Assembly (NCBI GenBank): GCA_965215185.1
Contig: OZ244034.1
Coordinates: forward strand, 2,336,001-2,400,000
Source: Acidimicrobiia bacterium
GTDB lineage: Bacteria > Actinomycetota > Acidimicrobiia > Spongiisociales > ZC4RG35
Direction of reading: 5' to 3'
Length of the DNA: 64,000 bases
Under the pieces are notes generated by a model, which saw only the letters and a list, made by a program, of their open reading frames with translations, searched no databases and was not told where the DNA came from. Below are positions 1 to 61,772 of the stretch, piece after piece. A program made the position numbers and the translations under genes. Numbering within the stretch: the first letter of the stretch is position 1; each line of letters opens with the position of its first letter.

Positions 1-2469
1 CTTCAACGAATGGGTGCCGGGTGACTGAACGCGTACGTAGTAGATGCCTGAGGGGACCACGGCATTCACGTATTCCTCGACGTTCGACTCATTTGTGCTC
101 GAGGCGAGAACCGCCAGCGTCGAGTCGGACTGTGGCTGCTCGAGGAACACATCTGCATCACGGGAGATGTCCAACAAGACGGCCGCGACGAATCGTTCTC
201 GTGTCAACGTAAACTTGAAATAGTTCGATCCAGAACTCAGCCAGTCATGCCACACGAGGCTCAGAGCGCCCTGCGTGGTCATATCTCCAAGGTCAAGCGC
301 GCCGACGGGTCCCGCAGCATCGTCATCGGCCACCGTTGCCGACACTTGCGCCGACAGCCCAGCATAGTTCGCGTCAGCCGATGTCGCGGTCGCTGTCACC
401 GACACCGTCTCGAACGCATCGTCGTTGTCGTCGACACCGGCAACCGTGACGGTCTGGGCCGTGCCCCATGTCGCCGAGGTGAAGACCAGCAGCGCCCCGT
501 CGCTCACCCTCAACGCCCCGCTGTCACCCGAGGACACCACAACGACGACATCCGCCGACGGGGCAGTGGAGAGTCTCACCGAGAACTCCCCGGTGCCCAT
601 CTCGCCCACGCGCATCTGCGTGGCGTCCACCACCAACCCGGAATGATCGTCGTCTTCGACATCGACCTCCAACTCCACGCGTGTCTCGTCGTAGGCAGCA
701 TCGGTGGACGAAGCCACCGCTGTGACGGTCACGTTGTCATCGTCAGCATCGTCGTCGTCGACACCGGCAACCGTGACGGTCTGGGCCGTGCCCCATGTCG
801 CCGAGGTGAAGACCAGCAGCGCCCCGTCGCTCACCCTCAACGCCCCGCTGTCACCCGAGGACACCACAACGACGACATCCGCCGACGGGGCAGTGGAGAG
901 TCTCACCGAGAACTCCCCGGTGCCCATCTCGCCCACGCGCATCTGCGTGGCGTCCACCACCAACCCGGAATGATCGTCGTCTTCGACATCGACCTCCAAC
1001 TCCACGCGTGTCTCGTCGTAGGCAGCATCGGTGGACGAAGCCACCGCTGTGACGGTCACGTTGTCATCGTCAGCATCGTCGTCGTCGACACCGGCAACCG
1101 TGACGGTCTGGGCCGTGCCCCATGTCGCCGAGGTGAAGACCAGCAGCGCCCCGTCGCTCACCCTCAACGCCCCGCTGTCACCCGAGGACACCACAACGAC
1201 GACATCCGCCGACGGGGCAGTGGAGAGTCTCACCGAGAACTCCCCGGTGCCCATCTCGCCCACGCGCATCTGCGTGGCGTCCACCACCAACCCGGAATGA
1301 TCGTCGTCTTCGACATCGACCTCCAACTCCACGCGTGTCTCGTCGTAGGCAGCATCGGTGGACGAAGCCACCGCTGTGACGGTCACGTTGTCATCGTCAG
1401 CATCGTCGTCGTCGACACCGGCAACCGTGACGGTCTGGGCCGTGCCCCATGTCGCCGAGGTGAAGACCAGCAGCGCCCCGTCGCTCACCCTCAACGCCCC
1501 GCTGTCACCCGAGGACACCACAACGACGACATCCGCCGACGGGGCAGTGGAGAGTCTCACCGAGAACTCCCCGGTGCCTGCCTCGCCCACGTTCAGGCCG
1601 GTAGGCACGGCAAGGAGTCCCGCAGCTTCCCTGCTGCCTCCGCCGCCTCCTCCGCCTCCTCCTCCGCCGCTTCCGCTTCCGCCGCTTCCGCCGCTTCCGC
1701 CTCCTCCGCCGCTTCCGCTTCCGCCGCTTCCGCCGCTTCCGCCTCCTCCGCTTCCGCCGCTTCCGCTTCCGCCTCCTCCGCCTCCGATGGAGTCGTCGCT
1801 GCCGGGGCTTTCTTCCGAGGGTTCCAATTCCAAGGCGCGTGCGAGGAACGTGGCCATCTCTGCTCTGGTAACAGCTTGGTCCGGGCAGAACATGGTGTCT
1901 TCGCATCCTTTGGTGATACCCGAAGCGGCGAGCTTGGCGACACTTGCCGCGTACCAAGCGTCGGAAGGCACGTCGCTGAAACCAGGGTCGGGTCCTTCAT
2001 CCAGACCGAAAGCCCGCGACAGGAAGGCAGCCATCTCGGCGCGGGTCGTAGTCCGATCGGGGCAGAAGACACTGCCGTCCCCGCATCCCTTGGTGACGCC
2101 AAGTACTGCCAGGCGCTCAACGAAAGCTACGTGAGGATGCGCCGCGTCCACGTCCCCAAAGCGCCTTGACGCAGCCGGCCAGGGGTCCGCTCCGTCCAGG
2201 ACGCGAACAGTCCACACCGCCACCGTCGCGCGATCTATGTCATCCCCGGGGCAGAACCCCTCATCGCACTCAGTGCCCACAAACACCCCGGCGGCGGCAA
2301 GAGTGCTGACCGGCTCCGCGTAGTAGGTGTCCGGGGGAACATCCGAATACGGCGCACCGTCCTGCGCCACGGCCACCGACGTTGCTGCCCCCAGTACCGC
2401 AGCCACCATGGCCACAACAGCCAACCCCCAAACCACCCCAACACGAACGCCACTCAACCACAACCGCAC
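1..2469 (-). CDS. Large secreted surface protein: signal peptide, three SLH-like domains, Gly/Ser linker, about four Calx-beta/Ig-like repeats, PPC-like domain; 3' end lies outside the window
   Basis: Hand-translated minus frame from GTG 2469 is open to position 1 (missing from the ORF track): VRLWLSG...AVAQDGAPYSDVPPDTYYAEPV..., GCGDGSVFCPDRTTTRAEMAAFL (SLH-like), LVFTSATWGTAQTVTVAGVDDDDADD (repeat), YFKFTL...DADVFLE...PSGIYYVRVQ (PPC-like). Confidence 0.85.
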   Translation of the reverse strand, partial: MRLWLSGVRVGVVWGLAVVAMVAAVLGAATSVAVAQDGAPYSDVPPDTYYAEPVSTLAAAGVFVGTECDEGFCPGDDIDRATVAVWTVRVLDGADPWPAASRRFGDVDAAHPHVAFVERLAVLGVTKGCGDGSVFCPDRTTTRAEMAAFLSRAFGLDEGPDPGFSDVPSDAWYAASVAKLAASGITKGCEDTMFCPDQAVTRAEMATFLARALELEPSEESPGSDDSIGGGGGGSGSGGSGGGGSGGSGGSGSGGGGGSGGSGGSGSGGGGGGGGGGGSREAAGLLAVPTGLNVGEAGTGEFSVRLSTAPSADVVVVVSSGDSGALRVSDGALLVFTSATWGTAQTVTVAGVDDDDADDDNVTVTAVASSTDAAYDETRVELEVDVEDDDHSGLVVDATQMRVGEMGTGEFSVRLSTAPSADVVVVVSSGDSGALRVSDGALLVFTSATWGTAQTVTVAGVDDDDADDDNVTVTAVASSTDAAYDETRVELEVDVEDDDHSGLVVDATQMRVGEMGTGEFSVRLSTAPSADVVVVVSSGDSGALRVSDGALLVFTSATWGTAQTVTVAGVDDDDADDDNVTVTAVASSTDAAYDETRVELEVDVEDDDHSGLVVDATQMRVGEMGTGEFSVRLSTAPSADVVVVVSSGDSGALRVSDGALLVFTSATWGTAQTVTVAGVDDNDDAFETVSVTATATSADANYAGLSAQVSATVADDDAAGPVGALDLGDMTTQGALSLVWHDWLSSGSNYFKFTLTRERFVAAVLLDISRDADVFLEQPQSDSTLAVLASSTNESNVEEYVNAVVPSGIYYVRVQSPGTHSLK
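425..1577. repeat. Tandem 327-bp (109-aa) intragenic repeat, about 3.5 essentially identical copies
   Basis: Identical shadow ORFs start at 704, 1031 and 1358 (period 327); copies look identical by eye. Confidence 0.95.
1635..1786. repeat. Low-complexity microsatellite encoding a Gly/Ser linker on the minus strand
   Basis: (ccgctt/ccgcct/cct)n reads GGA GGC GGA AGC on the coding strand. Confidence 0.9.
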
Positions 2470-2656
2470 TAAAACGAACCCCCACCGAGGCCGACACAAT
2501 TACTACAGATACAACTCATTTACAGAGCAGAAGTTAGCACTTTATACTCGGCGCTCTCATTTTTACCTCACAATCGCCTTATAAATATAACACAGCGGGG
2601 CAGCGTCCCATTGACGTGGTGGGAATGATCCTTACCGCAGGATTGGATGGTATCTC

Positions 2657-2980
2657 GTGAGGACCGTCATGCGTCGGCTGGCAAGACTGGTGTGCTGGGT
2701 TCTGCTGTGTTTCGTGTTAGCAGAAGGCGGTGCTGCGGCGGGGACTGCTGTTGGTGCAAGAGTGGCTTTATTCGCGGTTCCTTCAATGAACGTATGCGAT
2801 CGCACACCAGCAGTTCGCGACACGATCGTCGCCGCGGTCGCCGGAATCGACGATTGCCAGGATGTGACCGAGGCGCACCTCTCCGGAATCGGAAGGTCTC
2901 TCATCCTGAGACGCATGGGCATCACGGCTCTTAGGGTTGGAGACTTCGACGGTCTGACCTCTCTGAGGAGATTGACGTTG
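2657..2980 (+). pseudogene. N-terminal fragment of a secreted leucine-rich-repeat protein, truncated by IS3 sequence
   Basis: Signal peptide then VCDRTPAVRDTIVAAVAGIDDCQDVTEAHL...ITALRVGDFDGLTSLRRLTL (LRR cap plus first LRR). Confidence 0.75.
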
Positions 2981-3170
2981 CCCGACCGCTATCGGCCCGT
3001 TCTATTCGCCATGCCTGGCTGACAGACATTATTCATCAGATCCACCAGCGGTCACGGGGCACGTATGGGGCGCTGCGGGTGCATGCCGAACTGCGGTTGG
3101 GTCATGGAATCTCGTAGGACACAACGCGGTGGCGATGCTGATGCCCAGGAGCCGGCCTGGCCGGTCTCAG
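2981..3170 (+). mobile_element. IS3-family OrfB N-terminal fragment
   Basis: Frame reads RPLSARSIRHAWLTDIIHQIHQRSRGTYGALRVHAELRLGHG, typical of IS3 OrfB. Confidence 0.75.
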
Positions 3171-3187
3171 TAGGTGACCGACGGCCC

Positions 3188-3462
3188 ATTGATGATCACC
3201 CCGAAGACGACAGCACCTTCGTAGCTTCTTACATGATCTCCGATCCGGAAGGAACCACCACCGCCACCATGTTGACCGGCACCGACCGAGACGACCTGCA
3301 AATCACCAACACTGGACAGCTCAGTTTCCAGGAAATCCCCGACTATGAAAACCCCACCGATTCCAACCGCGACAACACCTACCAGGTAACAATCGAAACC
3401 ACCGCCGGCAGCCACACCACCCGCCACAACCTCACCGTGAAAGTCACCAACCAAGACGAACC
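3188..3462 (+). pseudogene. Orphan cadherin-domain fragment
   Basis: SDPEG...GQLSFQEIPDYENPTDSNRDNTYQVTIE...VKVTNQDEP cadherin motifs. Confidence 0.8.
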
Positions 3463-3696
3463 TGAGGTTCCCCCGGTTTGGCGGACTGTTTTGGTTGGTG
3501 TTCATGCCACCAGTTGTTGTTGGTGGCGGTAGTTTACGGGGCTTTGTTGGTTGTTGTAGGAGTGTCTCCTTTCGGGGTTGTACCAGCCTTCGATGTACTC
3601 GAAGATTGCCAGGCCCTGCTGGTGGCGGGTCTCCCATTTCTGGCGGTCCAGCAGTTCTGTTTGGAGGGTGGCGAAGAACGATTCCACGACGGCGTT
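3463..3696 (-). mobile_element. IS3-family right end with transposase C-terminus
   Basis: Terminal TGAGGTTCCCCCGGTTTGGCGGAC; minus frame NAVVESFFATLQTELL...AIFEYIEGWYNPERRHS. Confidence 0.85.
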
Positions 3697-4355
3697 GACG
3701 CCCCTATAGTCAAATTTTGGGTTTAGGGGGTGGTGTGTTGTCGGGTTTTGTGGTCGGTCATGACGCGTTGGTAGACCTCGCGGGCGAGGAAGCGTTTCAG
3801 GCAGCGGATGATGTCCTTTTTTGAGAGGCCCTGGGCGGTGCGACGAGCGACGTAGTCGATGGTGGGCTAGTGGAATCGCATTCGTACTATCGCTACTCGG
3901 TACAGCGCCGCGTTGGCTTGACGGTGCCCGCCTCTGTATAGACGATGCCTGTTGGTCTGTGCGGAGGAAGCCGGAATCGGACACGTGCCACAGAGTTTGG
4001 CGAATGCGGCCTCGGAACGGATCCGTTCGGGGTTGTCACCGAACACGATGAGAAGCTCCGCCGCGGAATCGGCTCCGATGCCAAAGCCGTCTCGCAGTGT
4101 TGGGGAGGCTTGGGCGGTGAGGTCGTCGAGCACGGTGTCGTGGGAGCGGATCTCGGTGTCGAGGTGGAGCCAGCGGCGTGCTAGTGCTCTTGAGTGAGTA
4201 CTTGGCGGAGGCTGTGGGGGTGTTGATCACCGAGACCCGAAAGCGTGCGCAACGGTTGATGAGCGCTTTGTTAGAAAGCCCATCGAGGGATTCGCGCAGC
4301 TCGGCCGGGGTGTTGACGATGATTGCCTTGAGGGTGATGATCGCCGAGGTTCGGC
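3697..4355 (-). mobile_element. IS110-family element D: 3' half of recombinase (pseudogene) plus right end
   Basis: FGDNPERIRSEAAFAKLCGTCPIPASS...RHRLYRGGHRQANAAL; in-frame TAG at 3867-3869; right end TTGACTATAGGGGCGTC abuts IS3 codons AAC GCC. Confidence 0.85.
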
Positions 4356-4790
4356 GAGCCTGTATACATGTCTGTGTGAGGTGGGTTCTTTATTGCTGTG
4401 GCTGGTGTGAGAGCCGGTCCGAGAGGAGAGTGTTTTGATGCCTATTGAACATGATGTGACGGAGGCGGCTGTGGTGGCTGCTGGTGTGGTGTCTGATGAG
4501 GTGGTGGAGGCGGTGGTTTCGGACGCTGCTGCTGGTGGTGTGGACCTTCTGGGTCCTGATGGGGTGTTGGCTGAGTTGACGAAGCGGATTCTGGAACGTG
4601 CTTTGGCTGAGGAGATGACCGATCATCTGGGCTATGAGTCCGGTGATCCGATGGGTCATGGTACGGGTAAGAACCGTAACGGGTCCTCTCCCAAACAGGT
4701 GCTGACTAAAGATCGGCGCGGTGGATTTGGACATTCCACGGGACCGTAACGCTACGTTCGAACCGAGGATCGTTCCCAAGGGCGCCCGGC
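4356..4790 (+). mobile_element. IS256-family element: left end and 5' part of transposase (frameshifted)
   Basis: End GAGCCTGTATACATGTCTGTGTGAG; LLGPDGVLAELTKRILERALAEEMTDHLGY...RNG and DIPRDRNATFEPRIVPKG. Confidence 0.9.
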
Positions 4791-5230
4791 GCCGTAGCTG
4801 CCGGTGCCTTCCACCCCAACCCGCACCACACGACCCTGGGATCTCAACCAGCCGCCCAGTTCCTCAAAGCCGGTTGCATCGGCCGGGAACGGAGCGGTTC
4901 CCAGGACTCGACCGGCGGTGTCCACTACCGCCGCGACATGACAATCGCGATGGGTGTCCACCCCGCCAAACACCTCAACCAGGCTCTCTTTTTGTGACAT
5001 GAATGTCTTCTTCTTCCTTGGATAGACTCGCGGGTATCACCGGACCGGAAGCGGTGGACAGAACACTCATGATGGTGTGGAGAAGCAAGGCTCCTATAAG
5101 GTCACATCCGCTCCCGGGTCGGGGAGTGTCCCCAGGCCGAAAGCAGGCCGACAGATCATGATAAGGCACAAACGGCCAGTTTGTCAAGGGGTCAGACCCG
5201 CCCCGACCAGGGACCCCACCATTATCGAGT
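4783..5230 (-). mobile_element. IS110-family element C: left end, bridge-RNA region and recombinase N-terminus
   Basis: ORF from 5000: FGGVDTHRD...GVEGTGSYGAG; left end ACTCGATAAT at 5230; fused to IS256 through the microhomology cccggcgc. Confidence 0.85.
5045..5215 (-). ncRNA. Putative IS110-C bridge RNA (left target guide TTGACAAAC at 5187-5179, right target guide CATG, donor guides ATAGGAGC and GAGTG)
   Basis: Scaffold aligns with the A1 and A2 non-coding ends; variable segments fall at the guide positions; boundaries approximate. Confidence 0.75.
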
Positions 5231-5589
5231 GTTTTGCAAATCGCTTTTCGGGGGTGGGGGTTGTTTGAGCTTTTTGGTGGGGTGGTTTGGGGTTGGGGCG
5301 AGTTCTGGGGGTTTAGTGGGGGGTTTTCCAGTAGCCGGTAGAGGTGGCGGGCGATGTACCGTTTGAGGCAGCGTCGTGCTTCGCGGGTGGTTTTTCCTTG
5401 GCTGATGCGTTTGGCTATGTAGGCCTGGGTTTTGGGACAGTGGCGGGTGCGGGTGATGGCCATGTTGTGGAGCGCGCGGTTGAGTTGGCGGTCACCGCGT
5501 CGGTTGAGTCGGTGGCGGGTGCGTTGCCCTGAGGAGGCTTGGAGGGGTGCTACGCCGGCTAGCCGAGCGAAGGCGGCTTCGTTACGGCA

Positions 5590-5766
5590 GCGGCAGCGTC
5601 CGAAACCACCGCCTCCACCACCTCATCAGACACCACACCAGCAGCCACCACAGCCGCCTCCGTCACATCATGTTCAACAGGCATCACAACACTCTCCTTT
5701 CGGGCCGGCTCTCACACCAGCCACAGCAATAGAGAACCCACCTCACACAGACATGTATACAGGCTC
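5590..5766 (-). mobile_element. Second IS256 left-end fragment, inverted relative to the 4356 copy
   Basis: Reverse complement of roughly 4356-4530 with few differences. Confidence 0.9.
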
Positions 5767-6249
5767 GGTTTGAGCGCCTCGGCGGACGGTTTCCAGTACC
5801 CGCAGGGCTTCTCGGTCTCCCCGAGCGCGGGGAGCCGAAAGCCGGGAGCGTCCCAGCGCCTGGCGGGCGGCTCGTCGAGCGTCCAACGCGTCGGTTTTGG
5901 CGCCGTCGCGGGTCGGGTGGGGATGGCCGAACTCTATTACCCATTCACCAGCCTCAGAAAGGTAGTCGGTGACTCCTGCTCCGTAGCTACCGGTTCCTTC
6001 CACCACCCACGCTCGTTCCGCGGATGTGTGCTGGTTTGTCCACTCCAACAGTTGAGCATATCCCATGCTGGTTGTCCCAAAGCGCGCAGATGTCAACTCT
6101 CCGGTGGTGGCAGTGTCCACTACCGAAGCGGTGATCCAGTCACGGTCAGGGCCTATTCCTATCGTATGTTTTACCATCTCGGCTAGCATCGTATTTGTTC
6201 CTCTTTTCTGGTGTTACCGGTTAGAGCTGGCGTACCCCCGAGGAGCGGC

Positions 6250-6460
6250 AACCGTTACGGCAGACCTGTGATGGGTCACACCCATTTGGGTGGACAGGCT
6301 TCTGATCAGGCCAGCAACGAAGCACCCAGGCGGGCGCAGCGAAGGGTGTCGGACACATCGATTTGAAGACACGGACCGGTCGGTAAAGACAGAAACGGTC
6401 AGGGTTTTGGAGGGTCACGACACCACCGCTGCGCCTAGCCTGGCAGACTCTGAGAGCACC
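6250..6460 (-). ncRNA. Putative IS110-B2 bridge RNA (left target guide CCAAAACCC at 6410-6402, right target guide CAAATCGA at 6365-6358)
   Basis: Scaffold aligns with the B1 left end; donor guides AGAAGC and CACAG conserved; boundaries approximate. Confidence 0.78.
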
Positions 6461-6462
6461 CC

Positions 6463-7686
6463 CTACATACTCACAGGGTTTGGTGCGGTGAGCCATTGGT
6501 GGTATCGGGTGGCGAGTTGGTGGTTGTGGTAGAGGCCTCGTTCGAGTTGTGAGAGGCGGTTTGGGTGGGCGTGGACGGCTGTGGCGGCCTGAGCGAGAGT
6601 GGTCCGGGTTTTTTGGCGTAAACAGCGTAGATCGGCGCCGTTGGGTGTTGAGGGTGGGTCGGTCAACAGTCGGTAGACCTGGCGGGCGATGTGGCGTTTC
6701 AGACAGCGGATGATCTCTCGGCGGGTTTTGCCTTCCGCCCGGCGTTTTTCGACGTATTCGATGGTGGTCTGGTCGCAGCGCATCCGAGTGGTGGCGATCC
6801 GCCACAAAGCGTTGTTGGCTTGGCGGTCGCCACCGCGGTTGAGGCGATGGCGCACAGGTCCTGAGGATGCCTGGACGGGACTGGCGCCGCACAACGCCGC
6901 GAAGGAAGCTTCCGATCTCATGCGTTCGGGGTTGTCACCAGCTGCGACCAATAAGGCGGCGGCGGTGTCCGGGCCGATCCCTGTGGTGGCCAACAGCGCC
7001 GGGTTGGCCCGGGCGCAGAGATCTTTGATCCGGGTGTCGAGTTCTCCGATCTCTGCGGTGAGGGTCTGGTATCTGCGGGCCAAGAGACGGAGGACATGTT
7101 TGGCGTAGGTGATGGTGGTGTCACCATCACCCGGACGAAAACCGGCACAGACCTTCCCGCGGGCTTTGGGGGAGAGCCCCCGAAGTTGGTGTTTGACCTG
7201 GTCGGGAGCAGTGACCACCAGGGCGTGCAGCTGGTTGATGGCCTGGGTACGGGCCTTGATCGCCGAACGGTGGGCCACTGTCAGCATCCGTATTGCTTCT
7301 ACTGGTCCGTTCCCGCTTTTGGGCAACCCGGTGGCCTGCCCGTTCAAAGCAGCCCGCGCCGCTGCCCGGGCGTCTGTGACATCGGTCTTGCCGAAGCGGC
7401 GGCGTAACTGGCGGTTGGGCCGGTTCACTTCCACCACCTCAACACCAATGCTCATAAGGTGGCGGGTCAGGCCGGCGCCGTAGCTGCCGGTGCCCTCCAC
7501 CCCGACCCGCACAACACGACCCAGGGACCCCAACCAGTTGTTCAACCGTTCATAACCGGCGACATCGGCCCGAAACGGCGCCGAGCCAAGGACCCGACCG
7601 GTGGCATCCACCACCGCCGCGACATGGGTATCACGGTGGGTGTCGACCCCACCAAACACAATCCGATCATCCTCTGACATATGCAT
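6463..7686 (-). CDS. IS110 recombinase A1 with C-terminal XRE-type HTH extension
   Basis: DEDD residues (GVDTH, GVEGTG, KTDVTDA), ASSG serine, RHRLNRGGDRQAN; tail DLRCLRQKTRTTLAQAATAVHAHPNRLSQLERG; last codons come from the B2 end. Confidence 0.92.
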   Translation of the reverse strand: MHMSEDDRIVFGGVDTHRDTHVAAVVDATGRVLGSAPFRADVAGYERLNNWLGSLGRVVRVGVEGTGSYGAGLTRHLMSIGVEVVEVNRPNRQLRRRFGKTDVTDARAAARAALNGQATGLPKSGNGPVEAIRMLTVAHRSAIKARTQAINQLHALVVTAPDQVKHQLRGLSPKARGKVCAGFRPGDGDTTITYAKHVLRLLARRYQTLTAEIGELDTRIKDLCARANPALLATTGIGPDTAAALLVAAGDNPERMRSEASFAALCGASPVQASSGPVRHRLNRGGDRQANNALWRIATTRMRCDQTTIEYVEKRRAEGKTRREIIRCLKRHIARQVYRLLTDPPSTPNGADLRCLRQKTRTTLAQAATAVHAHPNRLSQLERGLYHNHQLATRYHQWLTAPNPVSM

Positions 7687-7753
7687 CTTCTCCTTCAAAG
7701 GTAGAATTCGTTTCTGTTCTCTCTGACCCGAAAAAACGGTGGACAGACCACTC

Positions 7754-9153
7754 TGTGAGTATTGGGGGGGCCTTGTAGAGGCTGCCAGGATTGGCGTCAG
7801 CGGTGGTGTCGTGACCCGAGACCACTCTGACCTTTGTGTCTTTGCCGTGATATGTCCGACACCGCCGCGACGCCCCTGGGCGTTCCGTTGCTGGCCTGAT
7901 CAGAAGCTTGTCCACCCATGGGGTGTGACTCATCACAGTCCTGCCGTCACGGTTTGCGCCTTGTGAGGCACTAGCCCAGTTCGCACAAGAAAGAGAAGGT
8001 TTCTTATGTTGGCCACAATGGTAGAGCATGTGATCGGGATCGATCCTGATCGTGACCGGGTCACCGCCGCGGTAGTAGACACTTCCACCACCGGAGAACA
8101 AGCGACTGCGGTGTTCGGAACCACCCGGCTGGGATATGACCGGTTGTTGAAATGGGCAGACCAGCACACTCAGACGGCTGAGCGGGTGTGGTCGGTGGAA
8201 GGCTCGGGCAGTTACGGAGCAGGCGTGACCACCTATCTCGCTGCCCGAGGTGAACTAGTGGTGGAGTTCAACGATCCCACCCCTACCCGCGACGGCGCCA
8301 AAACCGACGCACTGGACGCTCGGCGGGCCGCTCGCCAGGTGCTGGGCCGTCCTTGGCCATCTGTCCCGCGGGCTAGGGGAGACCGCGAAGCCTTGCGAGT
8401 GTTGGAGACCACCCGCCAGGGCGCCCAAGGGGCCAGAGTATCGGCCATCAACCAGCTAAAAGCCCTGGTAGTGACCGCGCCAGTCGATCTTCGGGACCAA
8501 CTCCGAGGTCTGAGCACAACTGCTCTGGTGGCCAAGTGCGCGGCGTTTCGAATCCGACCCGCCTCCGTCAACGAACTGACCGCCACCAAACAAGCCCTAC
8601 GTTCTACAGCCAGACGCATCCGCAACCTCAACAATGAAATAGCAGAGCTGAAAACGCCCATCGCCGAAATGGTCACAGCCGCAGCTCCGCAACTGCTCGA
8701 CCAATTCGGGATTGGTCCGGTCACCGCCGCCCAAGTGTTCATCGCCTGGTCCCACCCAGGCCGATGCCGCAACGAGGCCGCGTTCGCTCGCCTGGCCGGC
8801 GTAGCACCCCTCCAAGCCTCCTCTGGACAACAAACCCGCCACCGGCTAAGCCGCTACGGCGACCGCCAACTCAACCGCGCCCTCCACACCATCGCTATCA
8901 CCCGCGCTCGGGACTGCCCCAAAACCCGGGCCTACATCGCCAAACGCATCAGCCAAGGAAAAACCACCCGAGAAGCCCGCCGCTGCCTCAAACGGTACAT
9001 CGCCCGCCACCTCTACCGACTCCTACAAAACCCGCCCCCAACCCCGGCCGAACCAGCCCCACCGTTCCACTCGGAAACGCCGCAACACCCCCACAAGCTC
9101 AAACATCCTCAAATCCCCGCCAAAAGCCTCGATTTGGAGAACATAGAAGCATC
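7754..9153 (+). mobile_element. IS110-family element B1, apparently complete, TC core at both junctions
   Basis: ...AGACCACTC|TGTGAGTATT...CATAGAAGCATC|ACATGG; removing it restores the A-type non-coding end. Confidence 0.92.
7770..7960 (+). ncRNA. Putative IS110-B1 bridge RNA (left target guide AGACCACTC 7819-7827, right target guide GTGA 7847-7850, donor guides AGAAGC 7902-7907 and CACAG 7934-7938)
   Basis: All four guide segments match the observed target and the reconstructed circle junction; boundaries approximate. Confidence 0.85.
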
Positions 9154-9292
9154 ACATGGCAAGAGCAAGGCTCCTATCAGGTCACAGCCGCCCTGTCGGG
9201 AGAGCACCGCCCCCAGGCCGGAAGCAGGCCGACAGATCACCACAAAGGCACAACAGCCAGGTCGGAGTCGAGTCAGACCCGCCCCGGCCTAG
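8006..9292 (+). CDS. IS110 recombinase B1 (ORF reads through the right end into flanking DNA)
   Basis: GIDPDRD, VEGSGSYG, KTDALDA, APLQASSG, RHRLSRYGDRQLNRAL. Confidence 0.92.
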   Translation: MLATMVEHVIGIDPDRDRVTAAVVDTSTTGEQATAVFGTTRLGYDRLLKWADQHTQTAERVWSVEGSGSYGAGVTTYLAARGELVVEFNDPTPTRDGAKTDALDARRAARQVLGRPWPSVPRARGDREALRVLETTRQGAQGARVSAINQLKALVVTAPVDLRDQLRGLSTTALVAKCAAFRIRPASVNELTATKQALRSTARRIRNLNNEIAELKTPIAEMVTAAAPQLLDQFGIGPVTAAQVFIAWSHPGRCRNEAAFARLAGVAPLQASSGQQTRHRLSRYGDRQLNRALHTIAITRARDCPKTRAYIAKRISQGKTTREARRCLKRYIARHLYRLLQNPPPTPAEPAPPFHSETPQHPHKLKHPQIPAKSLDLENIEASHGKSKAPIRSQPPCRESTAPRPEAGRQITTKAQQPGRSRVRPAPA

Positions 9293-9300
9293 GGGCACCT
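9154..9300 (-). ncRNA. 5' part of the putative A1 bridge RNA (left target guide TCGACTCCGACC at 9271-9260, right target guide GGTG); continues at 7753-7735
   Basis: Near-identical scaffold to 61855-61990 with different guide segments. Confidence 0.8.
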
Positions 9301-9312
9301 ATAAGTATGAGT

Positions 9313-9845
9313 GGTTGGAGTCGACGTGGACGGGCGTAAACATGTGCTGGGGGTATGGCTGGGCGACGGCGGTGAAGGCGCCAAATACTGGTTGTCGGTA
9401 CTTACCGAGATACGCAACCGAGGCCTCGAAGACGCGCTGATCGTGTGCTGTGACGGCCTGAAAGGGCTCCCGGACGCGATCGAGGCGACATGGCCCCAGG
9501 CGCTGGTGCAGACCTGTGTGATCCACCTGCTGCGAGCCTCTATGCGGCTCTGCAGTTGGAAAGACCGAAAAACCATTGTGGCGGGCTTGCGACGCGTTTA
9601 CACCGCGGTAAACGCCGAAGCCGCTGTTGAGGCGTTGGACGAGCTCGAGGAACAATGGGGAAATCACTATCCCGGCGTTATACGAATATGGCGCCAGGCG
9701 TGGGAAGAGTTCACCCCGTTCCTGCGGTTCCCGCCAGAGCTTCGCAAGGTCGTGTACACAACCAACGTCGTCGAAAGCGTCCACTATCAACTACGGAAAG
9801 TCACCAAAACCAGGGGGCATTTCCCCACCGACCAATCCGCCCTCG
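9313..9845 (+). mobile_element. IS256-family transposase middle/C-terminal fragment (continuation of the 4356 element)
   Basis: VGVDVDGRKHVLGVW...CCDGLKGLPDAI...QTCVIHLLR...YTTNVVES...RGHFPTDQSAL. Confidence 0.9.
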
Positions 9846-9989
9846 CACTTGGATCGCGCCTCGCCCAACAGCATCCAAATGCTGGGGCCGAGCGAGTTGA
9901 TATCGGTGGCCTTGAAAGTGATCCACGGGTGGGACTTCAGATAGGAGCGCACAAGTGCCGCTCTACTATCGGTATATTGTTTTGACCAT
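9846..9989 (-). pseudogene. Short N-terminal remnant resembling a Fic-family protein
   Basis: YLKSHPWITF...IWMLLGEARSKCE, recalled as a Fic-family N-terminus; no Fic motif left. Confidence 0.5.
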
Positions 9990-10069
9990 TCTGATGTCCA
10001 ACTTGTTGTCCAGTAAAGAGACAGTGCAGTCAAGAGGTTTGCGGGAGTTCCCCCGCGTTCTAGTCGGGG

Positions 10070-11614
10070 CTAAGCCTCCGTCTGGAACTTGGCTTTCTCT
10101 GCGTCTCGGAGCCATCTTTTCATTACTTTGCCGGAGTCGTTGCGGACTAGGGCATCTACTACTTCGAAGTGTTTGGGGACTTTGAATTTGCCGAGGTTGG
10201 CGCGGCAGTGGGCGGTTAGTTCTTCTTCGGTGACGGTCATGCCGGGGAGGGCCACCACGAAGGCTTTGGGTACTTCGTCCCAACGCTCATCGGGCACTCC
10301 CACCACTGCTGTCTCGCTAACTGCCGGGTGTCTGGCCAGCACCCGCTCAATTTCGGCGCTTGCCACGTTTTCTCCGCCGCTTTTGATCATGTCCTTCTTG
10401 CGGTCCACAAACCACATATAGCCCTCGGCGTCGATGCGGCAGATGTCGCCTGAGTGGAACCATCCGTCGCGGAAGGCGGCGGCGGTCTCGTCAGGATCGT
10501 TCCAGTAACCCGGCGACACTTTGGGTCCACGGGCGACTAACTCTCCGGGCTCCCCGGGCGGCACCGGTCGGCCTTCGTCGTCCACTATCCGAAGATCTAT
10601 GTTGGCAAAGGGCCTTCCCACAGATCCTATTTTCTCGGGAGGGGGGTTGGCCTCCAGGTAGGCGGCGCCGTTGGTGAGTTCGGTCATCCCATACGCCTCT
10701 GACAACCGCACGTGCGGCAGGGTCTCCTGGAAACGGCGATAGACCGGCGCCGGCAGCCCTCCGAAGATGATCCACTTCAGAGAAGACAGGTCGTACTGAT
10801 GGCGGTCTTCCATCCTCATGATGTCGTGGATGATCTGAGCGGCCAGCACCCCTCCCGCCACCTTCTCCTTCGCCACCAGCTTCACGATCTCCCGGCCCGC
10901 ATAGCTGTGGACGATCACCAGCGTCGCTCCTATGTAAAGAGCAGTGAGTCCTGGGACATCCAGTCCGCTGACGTGAAATAGCGGCGCCGAAAGCATGATC
11001 CGGTCACTAGGAACCAGTTCCATTTCCAGAATCTGACCCACCTGATTCCAGATCACGTTTCCGTGGGTGGTGATCACCCCTTTGGGATGGCTGGTGGTAC
11101 CCGACGTGTAAAGAATCCGGGCCAGATCATCCAGCCCCATCTGGGCGTCAGGCACCTCTGCCCCGGCGGCGGCAGCCATCAATTCCTCGTAAACGTGCCA
11201 GCCGGCTGGGCCTTGGCCGGCATGGACGATGACGTGCCGGATGTCTGGAGAAGAAGCGAGCGTCTCTTGGGCTTTGTCGTGGAACCGTTGATCGACCACC
11301 AGTCCCACCGCTCCGGAATGGTTGAGGATGTAGGTCAACTCCCGAGGGTGAAGGCGCCAGTTGAGGGGGATAAAGGCCGCTCCGATCCGGTTGATGGCCA
11401 GGATCTCGATCAGGTAGTGATAGGAGTTGTCGGCCAGGATGGCGATGATGTCTCCCCTCCCATACCCCAGGTCCAAGAGCGCCTGGGCCATTTCGCTGAC
11501 CGCCGCGTCCAGTTGCCGGTAGGTAAGCCGGACCTCTCCATCAACCACGGCCTCCTTGTCTCCGAAGCGGTGCTTGTTGCGTTCCAGCAGGCGGCTCAGA
11601 TTGGCGGTGGGCAT
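10070..11614 (-). CDS. Acyl-CoA synthetase (AMP-binding)
   Basis: YTSGTTSHPKG, YGMTE, GWFHSGD, KKDMIKSGGENV, SGK. Confidence 0.93.
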   Translation of the reverse strand: MPTANLSRLLERNKHRFGDKEAVVDGEVRLTYRQLDAAVSEMAQALLDLGYGRGDIIAILADNSYHYLIEILAINRIGAAFIPLNWRLHPRELTYILNHSGAVGLVVDQRFHDKAQETLASSPDIRHVIVHAGQGPAGWHVYEELMAAAAGAEVPDAQMGLDDLARILYTSGTTSHPKGVITTHGNVIWNQVGQILEMELVPSDRIMLSAPLFHVSGLDVPGLTALYIGATLVIVHSYAGREIVKLVAKEKVAGGVLAAQIIHDIMRMEDRHQYDLSSLKWIIFGGLPAPVYRRFQETLPHVRLSEAYGMTELTNGAAYLEANPPPEKIGSVGRPFANIDLRIVDDEGRPVPPGEPGELVARGPKVSPGYWNDPDETAAAFRDGWFHSGDICRIDAEGYMWFVDRKKDMIKSGGENVASAEIERVLARHPAVSETAVVGVPDERWDEVPKAFVVALPGMTVTEEELTAHCRANLGKFKVPKHFEVVDALVRNDSGKVMKRWLRDAEKAKFQTEA

Positions 11615-11638
11615 GGCTGGTTTGTCCTCTGGTTGGGC

Positions 11639-12145
11639 CTAAGTGTCTTTGGCGTGCTTACTACGGTAGGCCAGAATCTCGGCCCGGGTGGGAAGAGCTA
11701 CGAATTCCAACAGATAACCGTCGGGATCCTTGGCAATAAAGGATCGGATCACCCCGTAGTTCTCGAGTTCCACAGCCAGGGGCTCGCAAAGAAACTCAGC
11801 ACCGGCCTCTTGCGCCCGACGGTACTGATCGTCAATCGTGTCGCCCTCTTTGATTTCAAACGACATGAGAAACCCGCCCAGGTCCTTCATCCCTCCCGGC
11901 CTGGTTCCCGGCGTGAGTCCATCATCCCATTCGATTAGTTCGATCTGGCCCAATTTCGACGGACCTTGCAGGAACACCGAGCGCCCGGTGGTGCCGGGGG
12001 GAAGCGCCAGGAACTTCTCCACGTCTTCTCCCTCCTGTTTCATCCTCAAAGTCGGCCGGTAGCCCAAGACCTGTTGATAGAACGCCACCGAGCGGTCCAA
12101 ATCGGTCACCGGCAAGGCGACATGGTGAATCTCGCTGACGCTCAT
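11639..12145 (-). CDS. VOC/glyoxalase family protein
   Basis: IHHVALPVTDLDRSVAFY, IELIE, KDPDGYLLEFV. Confidence 0.9.
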   Translation of the reverse strand: MSVSEIHHVALPVTDLDRSVAFYQQVLGYRPTLRMKQEGEDVEKFLALPPGTTGRSVFLQGPSKLGQIELIEWDDGLTPGTRPGGMKDLGGFLMSFEIKEGDTIDDQYRRAQEAGAEFLCEPLAVELENYGVIRSFIAKDPDGYLLEFVALPTRAEILAYRSKHAKDT

Positions 12146-13206
12146 ACCAGAGTCAACTGATCAGACATCTGCAATTGGGGTATTACCTCCGAGGCGAAGG
12201 TTTCCATGGCCGTCAGGGCGGCAGATCGATCCAGAGACGGTATCCGAAACCAACCTATGTAATGAGTGACGCCCAACTCTTCGCCCAATAGGCTCAAGGT
12301 GTTGACCACTTGGTCGACCGAGCCGAAGTTTCCTCCGTGGGTGAGAGTCTGCTCCAAGGTGAGAAGCTCGATGTTCTCCCGGACCTTGGCGTAGTAGGCC
12401 GCTTCCGAGGCAAGCGCATCGTCGGATCCGGGGATCACTTTTCCGACTGATTGGTAGTAGCGAAGCGCGGCTTCGGCGGCCTCCCGCAGGCCAGCGGGAT
12501 CGGCGCCCGCCCACACCTGCTGCATGAACGGCAATTCGTAGTCGGCAGGGTTGAAGCCCGCCTCCACCAGAGAATCCCGATACACCTGGAAGTTGTCTTT
12601 CATCTTGCCCAGCGGAGTGAAGTTGGGAGAGGTGATGATGTTGGATCCGTCCAAACCCCTCTTTCTGAAAGAACTGGGGGATACTGCTCCGTGTACCAGT
12701 GGTGGGCCGCCCGCCTGATAGGGCCGGGGATAGGTGGTGAGGTTCTCGTATTGGAAATGTCGCCCCTGATAAGACCAGCCCTCCTCATTCCAGGCCAGAC
12801 TCACAATGTCCATCGCCTCGGCGTAGAGTTCCCGAGACTGGGCCGGATCGACTCCGAATCCTTTGAATTCCTTGGGCTGGTATCCCCGTCCCACTCCCAT
12901 CTGAAACCGTCCCTTGCTGATCACATCCAGCGCCGCTCCCTCTTCGGCCAAACGGATCGGGTCATGGAAGGGAACCACCATCACTGCAGTTCCGACCATG
13001 ATCTTTCGGGTACTGGCGGCGATCGCCGCTCCAAATTGCAGTGGGTTGCCCAATATGCCATAGCGGGAAAAGTGGTGCTCGGCTAGCCACACCGAATCAA
13101 AACCCAGTTGATCGGCGATCTGGATCTCCTCCAAGGTGTCATGGAGCACCTGGTGGTCTTCTTGTTCACCGGCCGATGGGAACAGATTCATGATTCCGAA
13201 TTTCAT
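12142..13206 (-). CDS. LLM-class flavin-dependent oxidoreductase
   Basis: MKFGI, GFDSVWLAEHHF, DPIRLAEE, GRFQMGVGRGY. Confidence 0.93.
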   Translation of the reverse strand: MKFGIMNLFPSAGEQEDHQVLHDTLEEIQIADQLGFDSVWLAEHHFSRYGILGNPLQFGAAIAASTRKIMVGTAVMVVPFHDPIRLAEEGAALDVISKGRFQMGVGRGYQPKEFKGFGVDPAQSRELYAEAMDIVSLAWNEEGWSYQGRHFQYENLTTYPRPYQAGGPPLVHGAVSPSSFRKRGLDGSNIITSPNFTPLGKMKDNFQVYRDSLVEAGFNPADYELPFMQQVWAGADPAGLREAAEAALRYYQSVGKVIPGSDDALASEAAYYAKVRENIELLTLEQTLTHGGNFGSVDQVVNTLSLLGEELGVTHYIGWFRIPSLDRSAALTAMETFASEVIPQLQMSDQLTLV

Positions 13207-13284
13207 ATCCCGAACTCCGCTTCTCTTATCATTCCGACCGGTCAGTATGTTAGCGGATTCTTTCTGAATGTGCCGAGCGAGAAG

Positions 13285-14277
13285 CTAACGGTTGCGAAAA
13301 TGAGGAATGACCTCCTCGGCGAATCGCCTCACCGAATCAGTGGAAACAGAGGCCGGCATCCCGGTCCAGAACGGACGAAAGATCACATGGTTGATGCCCA
13401 GCGCCCGAAGCGATTCGATCCTGGCGATGAGGGTGGCGGGAGAGCCCACGTGAAAGGTGGTGCGGACCAGTTCCTCGATGCGGGACTTCTGCCAGGAAAT
13501 GGCCTCATACTCGGAGTAGATCATGTACTCCCTCTCCATGTACGGCAGAGCCGATTCGACCGCGGTCTTGTCATCGGGACCGCAGAAAAGTTCAACGATC
13601 AGAGGATATTCCCTTCCCTCCCGGGTCTTACCGGCCTCGGCCAACGCCTGGTCGTGCAATGCCAAAGCCTTCACCAGGTATCGGGGACTTGGCGAGTTAC
13701 CCGGAGCGAACCAGGCGTCTCCCATGCGAGCGGCTCGTTTCACCGCCGGTTTGCCTCCCGCTCCGATCCAGATGGGAGGGCCCCCCGGCTGGTGGGGAGG
13801 AACGCTGATGGTGTGGCCGGACACCTGGTAGTGCCGTCCTCGATAATCGACCTCCTCGCCACTCCACATTTGCCTGATGATCTCGATCGATTCGGTGAGC
13901 CGACCGGCCCGCTCCGCCCGGGGGATTCCGAAAGCGTCGAACTCGTTGTCCCGATATCCGGCGCCCAGACCCAGCACCACCCTTCCGCCAGAAATCTGAT
14001 CCAAGGTTGCGAACTCCTCGGCCACATGAACCGGATGAAGAAACGGCGCCAGCAAAATAGCGGTGCCGATGGTCATGGTGTCGGTAATCCCGGCCAGTCG
14101 GGCGGTCATCGAAATGGGCTGGAAGGTGGCGAGGTTGGCCAGATAATGGTGGATGGTCCACATCGAGTCGTATCCGAGTTGTTGGGCGGTCTCAGCCAGA
14201 TCCCACAACTCGGCGAGCCGCTGTTGAAGGTCGTCGGAATGCAGGTATTGATGGGAGGCCAGCAGCCCGAATTTCAT
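13285..14277 (-). CDS. LLM-class flavin-dependent oxidoreductase
   Basis: GYDSMWTIHH, HPVHVAEEFATLDQISGGRVVLGLGAGY, PPIWIGA. Confidence 0.93.
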   Translation of the reverse strand: MKFGLLASHQYLHSDDLQQRLAELWDLAETAQQLGYDSMWTIHHYLANLATFQPISMTARLAGITDTMTIGTAILLAPFLHPVHVAEEFATLDQISGGRVVLGLGAGYRDNEFDAFGIPRAERAGRLTESIEIIRQMWSGEEVDYRGRHYQVSGHTISVPPHQPGGPPIWIGAGGKPAVKRAARMGDAWFAPGNSPSPRYLVKALALHDQALAEAGKTREGREYPLIVELFCGPDDKTAVESALPYMEREYMIYSEYEAISWQKSRIEELVRTTFHVGSPATLIARIESLRALGINHVIFRPFWTGMPASVSTDSVRRFAEEVIPHFRNR

Positions 14278-60383: not shown

Positions 60384-60510
60384 CCCCGCACCCAAACTGG
60401 GCACCGCCCGCCCACCAACAGCCGGACCGTCGATCAACGCTCGTTCCTAGCGGCCCGGCATCCAGGCCGGGGCTTGATCGGCGTAGTCGTTGTCGATGCT
60501 CCTATGGTTG

Positions 60511-61772
60511 TCAAATCGAGTTTTGGTGGGGTGTGAGGGCGGTGAGCCATTGGTGGTATTGGGTGGCGAGTTGATGGTTGTGGTAGATGCCTCGCTCGAG
60601 TTGTGAGAGGCGTACTGGGTAGGTTTGTAGGGCTGTGGCGGCGTGGGTGAGGGTTGTTAGCGCGTTTTTGCGTAGACAGCGAAGATGGGCGCCGTTGGGA
60701 GTTTCGGGTGGATTGGTGAGCAGGTGGTAGATCTGGCGGGCGATGTGGCGTTTCAGGCAGCGGATGATCTCCCGGCGGTTTTTGCCTTCTGTTTGTCTTT
60801 TTTGGGCGTAGGCGATGGTGGTCTGGTCGTAGCGCATGCGGGTGATGGCGATCCGCCACAGGGCATTGTTGGCTTGGCGGTTGCCGCCCCGGTTGAGACG
60901 GTGGCGTATGGTCCGTCCCGACGACGCCTGGACGGGACTGGCGCCGCACAATGCTGCGAAGGACGCTTCCGATTGCATGCGTTCGGGGTTGTCACCAGCG
61001 GTGACCAACAGGGCAGCGGCGGTGTCGGCGCCGACTCCGGAGGCGGCTAACAGCGCCGGTGTCGGCGCCGACTCCGGAGGCGGCTAACAGCGCCTGGGCG
61101 CAGAGATGGTTGATCTGGGTGGTGAGCTCTTCGATCTCGGCGGTGAGCGCCTGATATCGGCGGGCCAGGGAACGCAGCGCCTTTTTGGCGTAGGTGACGG
61201 TGATGGTGGCTGTTCGGGGACGGAAACCGGCGCAGGCCTTGACGCGGGCTTTGGCCGGCAGTCCCCCCAGTTGGTGTTTGACCTGGTCGGGGGCGGTTAC
61301 CACCAAAGCGTGCAGCTGGTTTATGGCCTGGGTGCGGGCTTTGGTCGCCGAACGGCGGGCCACCGAAAGCATCCGTATTGCTTCCACCCGACCGTTGCCG
61401 CTTTTGGGCACCGCAGTGGCCTGTCCGTTGAGAACCGCCCGTGCCGCTCCTTGGGCGTCGGTGGCGTCGGTCTTGCCCAACCGGCGGCGCAACTGCCGGT
61501 TGGGACGGTTCACCTCTGTCACCTCGACACCGGCCTCGGTTAGATAACGGGCCAGGCCGGCGCCGTAACTGCCCGTGCCCTCTATACCGACCCGGACCAC
61601 TCGACCGTGTGACCCCAACCAGTCGCCCAGTTGCTGATAACCGGCCTGCATCGGCCACGAAGGAGGCTGTTCCCAAGACCCGACCGGTGCTGTCCACCAC
61701 CACCGCCATATGAACATCCCGGTGGGTGTCCACCCCACCAAACACAATCCGATCATCCTTTGACATATGCAT
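60511..61772 (-). pseudogene. IS110 recombinase A2 with C-terminal HTH; frameshift near 61650 and a 37-bp duplication
   Basis: Three frames homologous to A1; tandem 37-mer at 61021-61057 and 61058-61094. Confidence 0.9.

Follow-up and report, generated by a model that had tools for sequence, protein, structure and literature searches.

Among the described systems, those closest to the element considered here are the bridge recombinases of the IS110 group of insertion sequences (IS). The accessible part of the IS621 report describes a promoter that is rebuilt across the joined right and left ends (RE-LE), with the −35 box lying in the right end, and gives the strand rules by which the guides are read (PMC11208160), and the accessible part of a second report extends the junction promoter to ISEc11 and ISEc21, the latter of which is aimed at a conserved part of IS3-family transposase genes (PMC11187229). 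Here we compare with these systems an IS110 element, called C, of which one copy lies in a stretch of 64,000 nucleotides (below, the window) from an Acidimicrobiia bacterium (assembly GCA_965215185.1, contig OZ244034.1, positions 2,336,001 to 2,400,000 of the forward strand), whose genome is a single contig of 3.12 Mb. An earlier note on this DNA had proposed that the guide of C spells a −35 promoter box shared by IS110 right ends and that C is a generalist that attacks this segment in its siblings; all letters that it quoted are found where it had placed them. We consider it probable that C carries a bridge RNA in its left end whose target guide is set on TTGACAAAC^ATAG(A/G), the caret marking the joint, in the right ends of sibling elements.

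The window copy of C (4786-5230, minus strand) is a dead remnant within a stack of IS pieces that fills window positions 3000-9300. It is a truncated IS110-family element whose 5′ non-coding end is laid out like a bridge RNA, while the transposase gene is reduced to an N-terminal fragment of about 72 codons (4786..5000, minus strand), recognized by PF01548 (DEDD_Tnp_IS110, E 8e-10) on the open reading frame (ORF) 4752-5000; homology to the full copy ends near 4786, where the blastn match with it stops (query 475). The left non-coding end, which is the presumed bridge RNA gene (5001..5230, minus strand, first bases ACTCGATAATGG at 5230), has a consensus fold and is 98.5-98.6% identical to genome positions 1097483-1097268 (nhmmer E 7e-48); it differs from the full-length copy by three 1-base indels, of which one falls in the right guide. 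In general terms, the left end of C extends over 216-230 bases before the ATG and the right end over ~25-55 bases past the gene, with no long terminal inverted repeats, and the non-coding region stands upstream of the gene, as in the IS110 group, and not downstream, as in IS1111-like elements. The remnant adjoins what is left of B2, an IS110 element of the B subfamily (5231..6475, minus strand) with a left end from 6475 and transposase pieces at 5743-6189 and ~5245-5583 (tblastn, Pfam on 5743-6189, and sequence), which has itself entered the right end of the IS110 element A1. C starts directly after the last C of cgatTTGCAAAAC (5231..5243, minus strand), the subterminal right end of B2 and the left half of C's target, which is homologous to the right end of a further element, B1, at 9130-9142 and to other family right ends.

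The guides of C were read from a comparison of the left ends of its subfamily, gathered from the genome and 40 relatives, with matches in 14 of the 41 genomes, including 12 of the 16 congeners. All 39 parsed left ends hold a loop of 12 bases between GGTCTGAC and TGG, and the word at this fixed position covaries with the left flank of the element across 32 distinct pairs. In C, the loop carries the ten bases cTTGACAAAC before TGG (5179..5188, minus strand), and thus the left guide TTGACAAAC on the minus strand of 5179-5187, as the earlier note had it. At least 8 of 9 positions of guide and flank match in 23 of the 32 pairs (mean 7.78), compared with a mean of 4.68 and a highest mean of 5.59 in 2000 shuffles of the flanks; because no shuffle comes near the observed agreement, the assignment exceeds chance, and the loop word of C is a target guide. 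The loop is closed by a stem of 21 pairs (helix 1; 5′ strand 5191..5212, 3′ strand 5131..5153, both on the minus strand) in which 97% of the cells are paired and six pairs are compensatory, while slid controls reach 37-60%. The right guide corresponds to the six bases before GATCTGTC, which can pair with the start of the right flank; over 13 distinct pairs, an average of 3.77 of 6 positions are complementary, against 2.05 in shuffles, and none of 2000 shuffles scored as high. For this guide, the earlier note had named CATG (5157-5160). The letters are present, yet the intact copy and the relative E read TCTATGA, complementary to (T)CATAGA, as does the element at locus L055 of another genome; CATG is the product of one lost T in the window copy, where the damaged guide reads TCATGA (5156..5161, minus strand), and the corrected right guide CTAT is expected to pair with ATAG.

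The full-length C provides the clearest view of a target. This second copy, at genome positions 1097496-1097038 (blastn) and 98.5% identical to the window copy, has an open gene of 413 codons with PF01548 (E 4e-23) and PF02371 (E 3e-20). Its left flank reads cgatTTGACAAAC and runs directly into ACTCATAATGG (element start ACTCAT), so that C lies inside the right end of an IS110 element, D, behind a word that agrees with its loop at 9 of 9 positions. The flank check that the earlier note had suggested for full-length copies thus returns exactly TTGACAAAC, and within an IS110 right end. Past the tip of C follow the 11 bases that D is missing, cTAGGAGCATC, and then GGCAC; because GGCAC is the half-site predicted by D's own right guide, GTGCC, D was truly split by C. 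In addition, contigs of two runs from other studies (X5 and X8) join position 240 of locus L015 to position 1731, skipping exactly the 1490-bp C; this joint restores an intact ...GACAAACATAGGAGCATCGG... right end, followed by D's flank. Other contig joints link homologous places of C and D and are uninformative. As a separate observation, the full-length C has ~25 extra bases before cgatttg that are absent from the third C (L015 241-283, minus strand; genome ~1095993-1096035). They hold ctaggatgctc, the reverse complement of the gagcatcctag that spans the joint between the tips of C and D, and thus an 11-base inverted repeat surrounds the −35 box in this copy.

With the intact right guide TCTATGA, the predicted site of C is TTGACAAAC^ATAGA, 11 bp from the sibling tip, and further elements occupy positions of this kind. 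A third C, preserved as a 3′ fragment at genome 1613046-1612692, ends with ATAGGAGCATC, then ATAGGAGCGTC, then the flank. The relative E, whose left end is 81% identical to that of C, has the guide TTTTGCAAAC and is located behind cgatTTGCAAAAC, whereas the left end at L055 has the guide ATTGACAAAC and follows GATTTGACAACC, where an upstream IS110 gene ends. A scan for the loop pattern in one genome per species returned nine stretches, two of which are true left ends (L055 and L051, the latter a decayed remnant with no readable flank) and seven unrelated. Within the genome, TTGACAAAC occurs 20 times: twice as a guide, once in the right end of D, which is occupied, and 17 times elsewhere, with no site occupied (0/17), which speaks for the earlier note's view that C targets right ends. 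In a tree of the transposases (residues 21-310, 30 distinct rows, with a polytomy for most A-type rows), those of C and L055 are not sisters, which implies that the right-end guide was gained twice or moved between elements.

That these target words belong to IS right ends follows from the comparison of flanks, which in ~30 elements diverge only past ATAG[G/A]AGCATC; the family right end reads ...cgatTTGACAxxC plus ATAGGAGCATC. The 17 genomes of the genus contain 105 occurrences of ATTTG-N3-A-N2-ATAGRAGCATC, spread over 15 of them, while the reversed control has none. The same comparison bears out the earlier assignment of ATAGAAGCATC to an IS right end, and it places the point targeted by C where the earlier note had put it, between a hexamer resembling a −35 box and the last 11 bases of the sibling, which the donor loop is expected to recognize. 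Intact right ends in the window are those of B1 (cgatTTGGAGAAC plus ATAGAAGCATC, 9130..9153, plus strand) and of the element A2 (cgatTTGACAACC plus ATAGGAGCATC, 60495..60518, minus strand). As the earlier note had seen, the end of A2 is a near match to C's target, with 8/9 on the left and ATAG on the right; it is unoccupied. Among 15 family members tested, three have identifiable empty sites, which show that an element running from ACTCAT to GCATC enters right after a C, without duplication. Two details of this comparison were set aside: a reading of the ATAGAAGCATC after B1 as left-end sequence of A1 is ruled out by the right ends, among which it is an IS tip, and a 2-base core (TC, CA or AC) could not be fixed from the junctions, as the empty sites show only the insertion after a C. 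The genes of A-type elements also appear to end at TTGACA, either inside the hexamer or adjacent to it (...tcg att tga caa...; genome 1097492, window 60511-60513), and if the gene end is read rightly, their stop codon seems to overlap the −35 box.

A second, paralogous loop of the left end carries ATAGGAGCC and CATGAGTG, which correspond to the right tip and the left tip of the element. In C, the candidate left donor guide ATAGGAGCC (5089..5097, minus strand) does not vary among the 19 aligned left ends and resembles the family right tip ATAGGAGCATC, and the candidate right donor guide CATCATGAGTG (5064..5074, minus strand) is complementary to (C)ACTCAT, the left tip of C itself. TGAGT and ACTCA are complementary in all 19 sequences, where RNAalifold pairs positions 1-6 with 179-183; second-loop guides and tips are both invariant in the 19 and hence show no covariation. 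For the promoter, the right and left ends of the same element were abutted in silico and a consensus promoter rule was applied to the resulting circle junctions of 19 distinct elements. TTGACA, a spacer of 17 and CATACT or CATAAT are present at 13 of these junctions (10 or 11 of 12 positions; C itself scores 11), the arrangement is lost when the left end is displaced by at least 2 bases, and none of the 19 integrated left junctions has it. A hand count gives 53 tips of the ATAGGAGCATC type, 29 of them with TTGACA. The earlier note's reading of C's target as a −35 box therefore fits the geometry at these 13 junctions, and an active promoter at this place is plausible, though unproven.

By analogy with IS621, we propose the following mode of action. 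UCUAUGA, the right guide, would base-pair with CATAGA on its top strand, and the tips of C itself, ATAGGAGCATC and ACTCAT, would be bound in the second loop (AUAGGAGCC ... CAUGAGUG). Recombination would then seat C right after the C of ...AAAC, with no duplication and in the same orientation as the victim. The 9-mer read in this way would include the hexamer that, in an excised circle, supplies the −35 box of the junction promoter (TTGACA, 17 bases, CATACT or CATAAT). As to why this word was chosen, the clade of C may use conserved multi-copy words of other insertion sequences as places to land without harm; C's own kin offer one such word in their right end, and the −35 box would be hit because it is conserved. 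Such a use of conserved words of other insertion sequences is the simplest account of the clade. C probably takes its host element along instead of killing it. C's own right end, TTGACAAAA plus ATAGGAGCATC, lies 11 bp upstream of the victim's tip, and because C thereby brings an equivalent −35 and tip module, the victim may stay functional: D's donor loop could use the tip of C, and the composite could keep a junction promoter. For this reason we do not retain the earlier note's wording that C "attacks" its siblings.

Several observations weigh against a guide set on sibling right ends, or against parts of this proposal. At the window copy, the B2 flank word TTGCAAAAC (minus strand, 5231-5239) matches the guide of C at only 7 of 9 positions. 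The right half-site of the full-length C, CTAGGA, agrees with the predicted ATAGA(T) at 3 of 6, and one base at the right junction with D (C for A) does not follow from a clean exchange; the empty-site joint in the contigs has short sides of 21 and 18 letters, possibly repeat-derived, and is a hint only. From the 61 left ends found by nhmmer, 22 were dropped from the guide comparison, 20 of them unparsed by the pattern and two off the locus edge. The stem drawn for the second loop is weakly supported (86.8% paired, no compensatory change), and an Rfam scan of window positions 1-14000 with E up to 1 returned no family and one chance match to mir-981. Six of the 19 in-silico junctions fail the promoter rule, with the hexamers TTGCAA, TTGTAA or TTTCCA. 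Finally, 13 intact right ends with at most two mismatches from the 14-mer target, one of them with a single mismatch (TTGGCAAACATAGA), are unoccupied, which leaves the "generalist" of the earlier note unsupported: C is a rare, specific element. A C-like guide was not found in the 16 congeners, and there was no true left end among the nine stretches returned by the pattern scan of metagenomes; the case is thus built on two genomes and one decayed remnant in a third.

Three other explanations of the same observations have to be considered. It is tempting to regard C as an adaptive generalist weapon that parts the −35 box of its competitors from their donor tip, with variants such as TTGGAGAAC as escape mutants. 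Indeed, the insertion parts hexamer and tip in every case seen, right-end guides on two non-sister transposases (C and L055) and in E hint at repeated gain, and the neighbors of C strike comparable places, B2 just upstream of cgatttg and B1 in the donor-guide segment of A1. We nevertheless regard such a weapon as unlikely, given that the composite of victim and C would retain a working module, that the 13 near-matching right ends stand unoccupied, and that the relatives of the clade found in ISL3 and IS110 transposase genes fit harmless landing sites equally well. The supposed escape mutants find no support either. TTGGAG or TTGGAA is usual in the 52 tips of the ATAGAAGCATC (B) subfamily and is also found in four genomes (G003, G007, G008 and G012) in which a C-like guide was not found; because the hexamer is usual there and present without such a guide, the TTGGAGAAC of B1, which the earlier note had suspected to be an escape variant, is a subfamily trait.

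The remaining two explanations are far less probable. One would dispense with guided insertion altogether and attribute the adjacency of right and left ends to homologous recombination, tandem duplication or half-match recombination through the donor loop. The region is crowded with rearranged IS pieces, the tip ATAGGAGCATC is common to all siblings, and half-match recombination is reported for IS621 in the accessible part of a recent study (10.64898/2026.08.31.748434). Against such an origin, which we judge very improbable, the joint lies 11 bp inside the tip and not at the tip, the victim's 11-mer returns after the tip of C in two copies (followed in D by D's predicted right half-site), the loop word matches at 9 of 9 positions, and the same joint is present in another genome with different neighbors. 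The other, to which we give marginally less weight still, is that the TTGACAAAC in the left end of C is the −35 box of an internal transposase promoter, with TATCAT 18 bases on. On the promoter scan, the loop of the window copy does contain TTGACA-18-TATCAT at 5187-5158 (minus strand), scoring 11 of 12, where shuffles of the 500-base region lead one to expect 0.1 such sites each. The same scan found no TTGACA-18-TATCAT site in the intact full-length C, the second hexamer having arisen in the window copy through the lost T; because the intact copy lacks it, the site is a by-product of the deletion. Moreover, the word occupies a loop position that varies among relatives, following their flanks. 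A bridge RNA aimed at sibling right ends therefore remains our preferred explanation for C.

Further nested insertions were noted. B1 (7754-9153, plus strand) is inserted in inverted orientation in the left end of A1 (~6476-9310, minus strand), whose outer left-end part lies at 9154-9310; the insertion point falls in the segment read as A1's right donor guide, and the B1 loop word GAGACCACTC (7818-7827) matches B1's left flank, gaccactc. The same inverted arrangement, with gatgcttctat after an A-type left end, is found at L031 (genome G003), at L055 and beside E (genome 909300). The loop words of B2, TCCAAAACCC and CAAATCGA (6358-6365 and 6402-6411, minus strand), predict the target ...CCAAAACC / TCGATTTG, which lies in an A-type right end shortly before the TTGACA box, and B2 sits there in A1 (junction 6475/6476); joints of a B tip followed by aatttgacaaaaataggagcatc that are similar to that of B2 lie at genome 978253 and 370994. 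Elsewhere, copies of one A-type element (L022, L035, L036, L039 and L045; genomes G015 and G007) are located in ISL3 transposase genes at ...NGPLEGINNLI, and in the case of L035 the flank was identified as ISL3-family PF01610 (E 1e-20). The element at L002 interrupts an IS110 transposase gene at ...IIRCLK, and three other loci show the site empty.

The truncation of C itself involves a further family. C is cut off by an IS256-like (Mutator family) fragment (4360..4785, plus strand; PF00872, E 3.5e-7, on ORF 4435-4749). The first ~140 bases of this IS256-like sequence are present in two inverted copies, at 4360-4500 (plus strand) and 5590-5765 (minus strand), which flank the remnants of C and B2, and their arrangement suggests that both elements were cut short by an inversion or deletion between these copies. 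Outside the stack, a long ORF on the minus strand of window positions 1-2499, with near-identical tandem repeats of ~327 bases at ~250-1600 and a Gly/Ser-rich stretch at 1620-1790, looks like a large repetitive surface protein.

Considering these insertions side by side, one might speculate that the IS110 elements of these genomes have repeatedly re-aimed their guides at each other's functional parts, with right-end guides arising more than once. We hold this to be possible but doubtful. If it were true, C, E and L055 would target the joint of −35 box and tip, B2-type elements the sequence upstream of the box, and B1-type elements the donor-guide segment of a sibling, and the nests in the window would record guide-based competition or piggy-backing between mobile elements.

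The natural targets of bridge RNA guides are little known, since these RNAs have been studied mainly as programmable tools. C would add a natural guide aimed at a stretch that its siblings cannot easily change, the box of a junction promoter beside the donor tip. With sites at 9/9, 8/9 and 7/9 in one genome, the tolerance of mismatches can be addressed, suitable words being TTGACAAAC, TTGACAACC and TTGACAAAA followed by ATAGG, and TTGCAAAAC and TTGGAGAAC followed by ATAGA. The system also lets one ask whether a host element that contains the invader is still mobile, and whether elements compete through the reprogramming of guides. In practical terms, nested insertion explains the stacks of IS110 pieces in these assemblies, which annotation pipelines will mis-call.

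How does C compare with the systems described so far? IS1383 is said to target the inverted repeats of IS1384, and IS4321/IS5075 reportedly target the terminal repeats of Tn21-family transposons. Judged by the titles of those reports, they resemble C in being IS110/IS1111 members that insert into the termini of other mobile elements; the elements they invade come from different transposon families, whereas the victim of C is a sibling with an interchangeable right end. In its machinery, C is most like IS621: as far as the accessible part of that report goes, both have DEDD and Tnp domains and a left-end non-coding RNA, presumed in C, whose first loop reads the target (left guide as the top strand, right guide complementary). 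A second loop for the element's own tips and an RE-LE junction promoter with the −35 box in the right end are described for IS621 (PMC11208160) and have candidate counterparts in C. They differ in that IS621 targets a repetitive extragenic palindromic (REP) sequence and C a sibling right end, and in the crossover, which involves a CT dinucleotide in IS621 and seemingly a single C in the family of C. The full transposase of C, compared with the PDB sequences including the solved IS621 chains, matched none at E 0.001. In its choice of target, C is closest to ISEc21, an RNA-guided IS110 relative whose target word also lies inside another insertion sequence; the accessible part of the report describes a coding motif of another family, whereas C is aimed at a non-coding right end of its own family that includes a likely promoter box (PMC11187229). 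A search of the literature on nested, tandem or self-targeting IS110 elements found no IS110-in-IS110 targeting, although the natural-target tables that supplement PMC11208160 and PMC11187229 may list cases. Taken together, the mechanism and the targeting of other mobile elements are known, and what C adds to them is a guide aimed at the joint between promoter box and donor tip of its own siblings.

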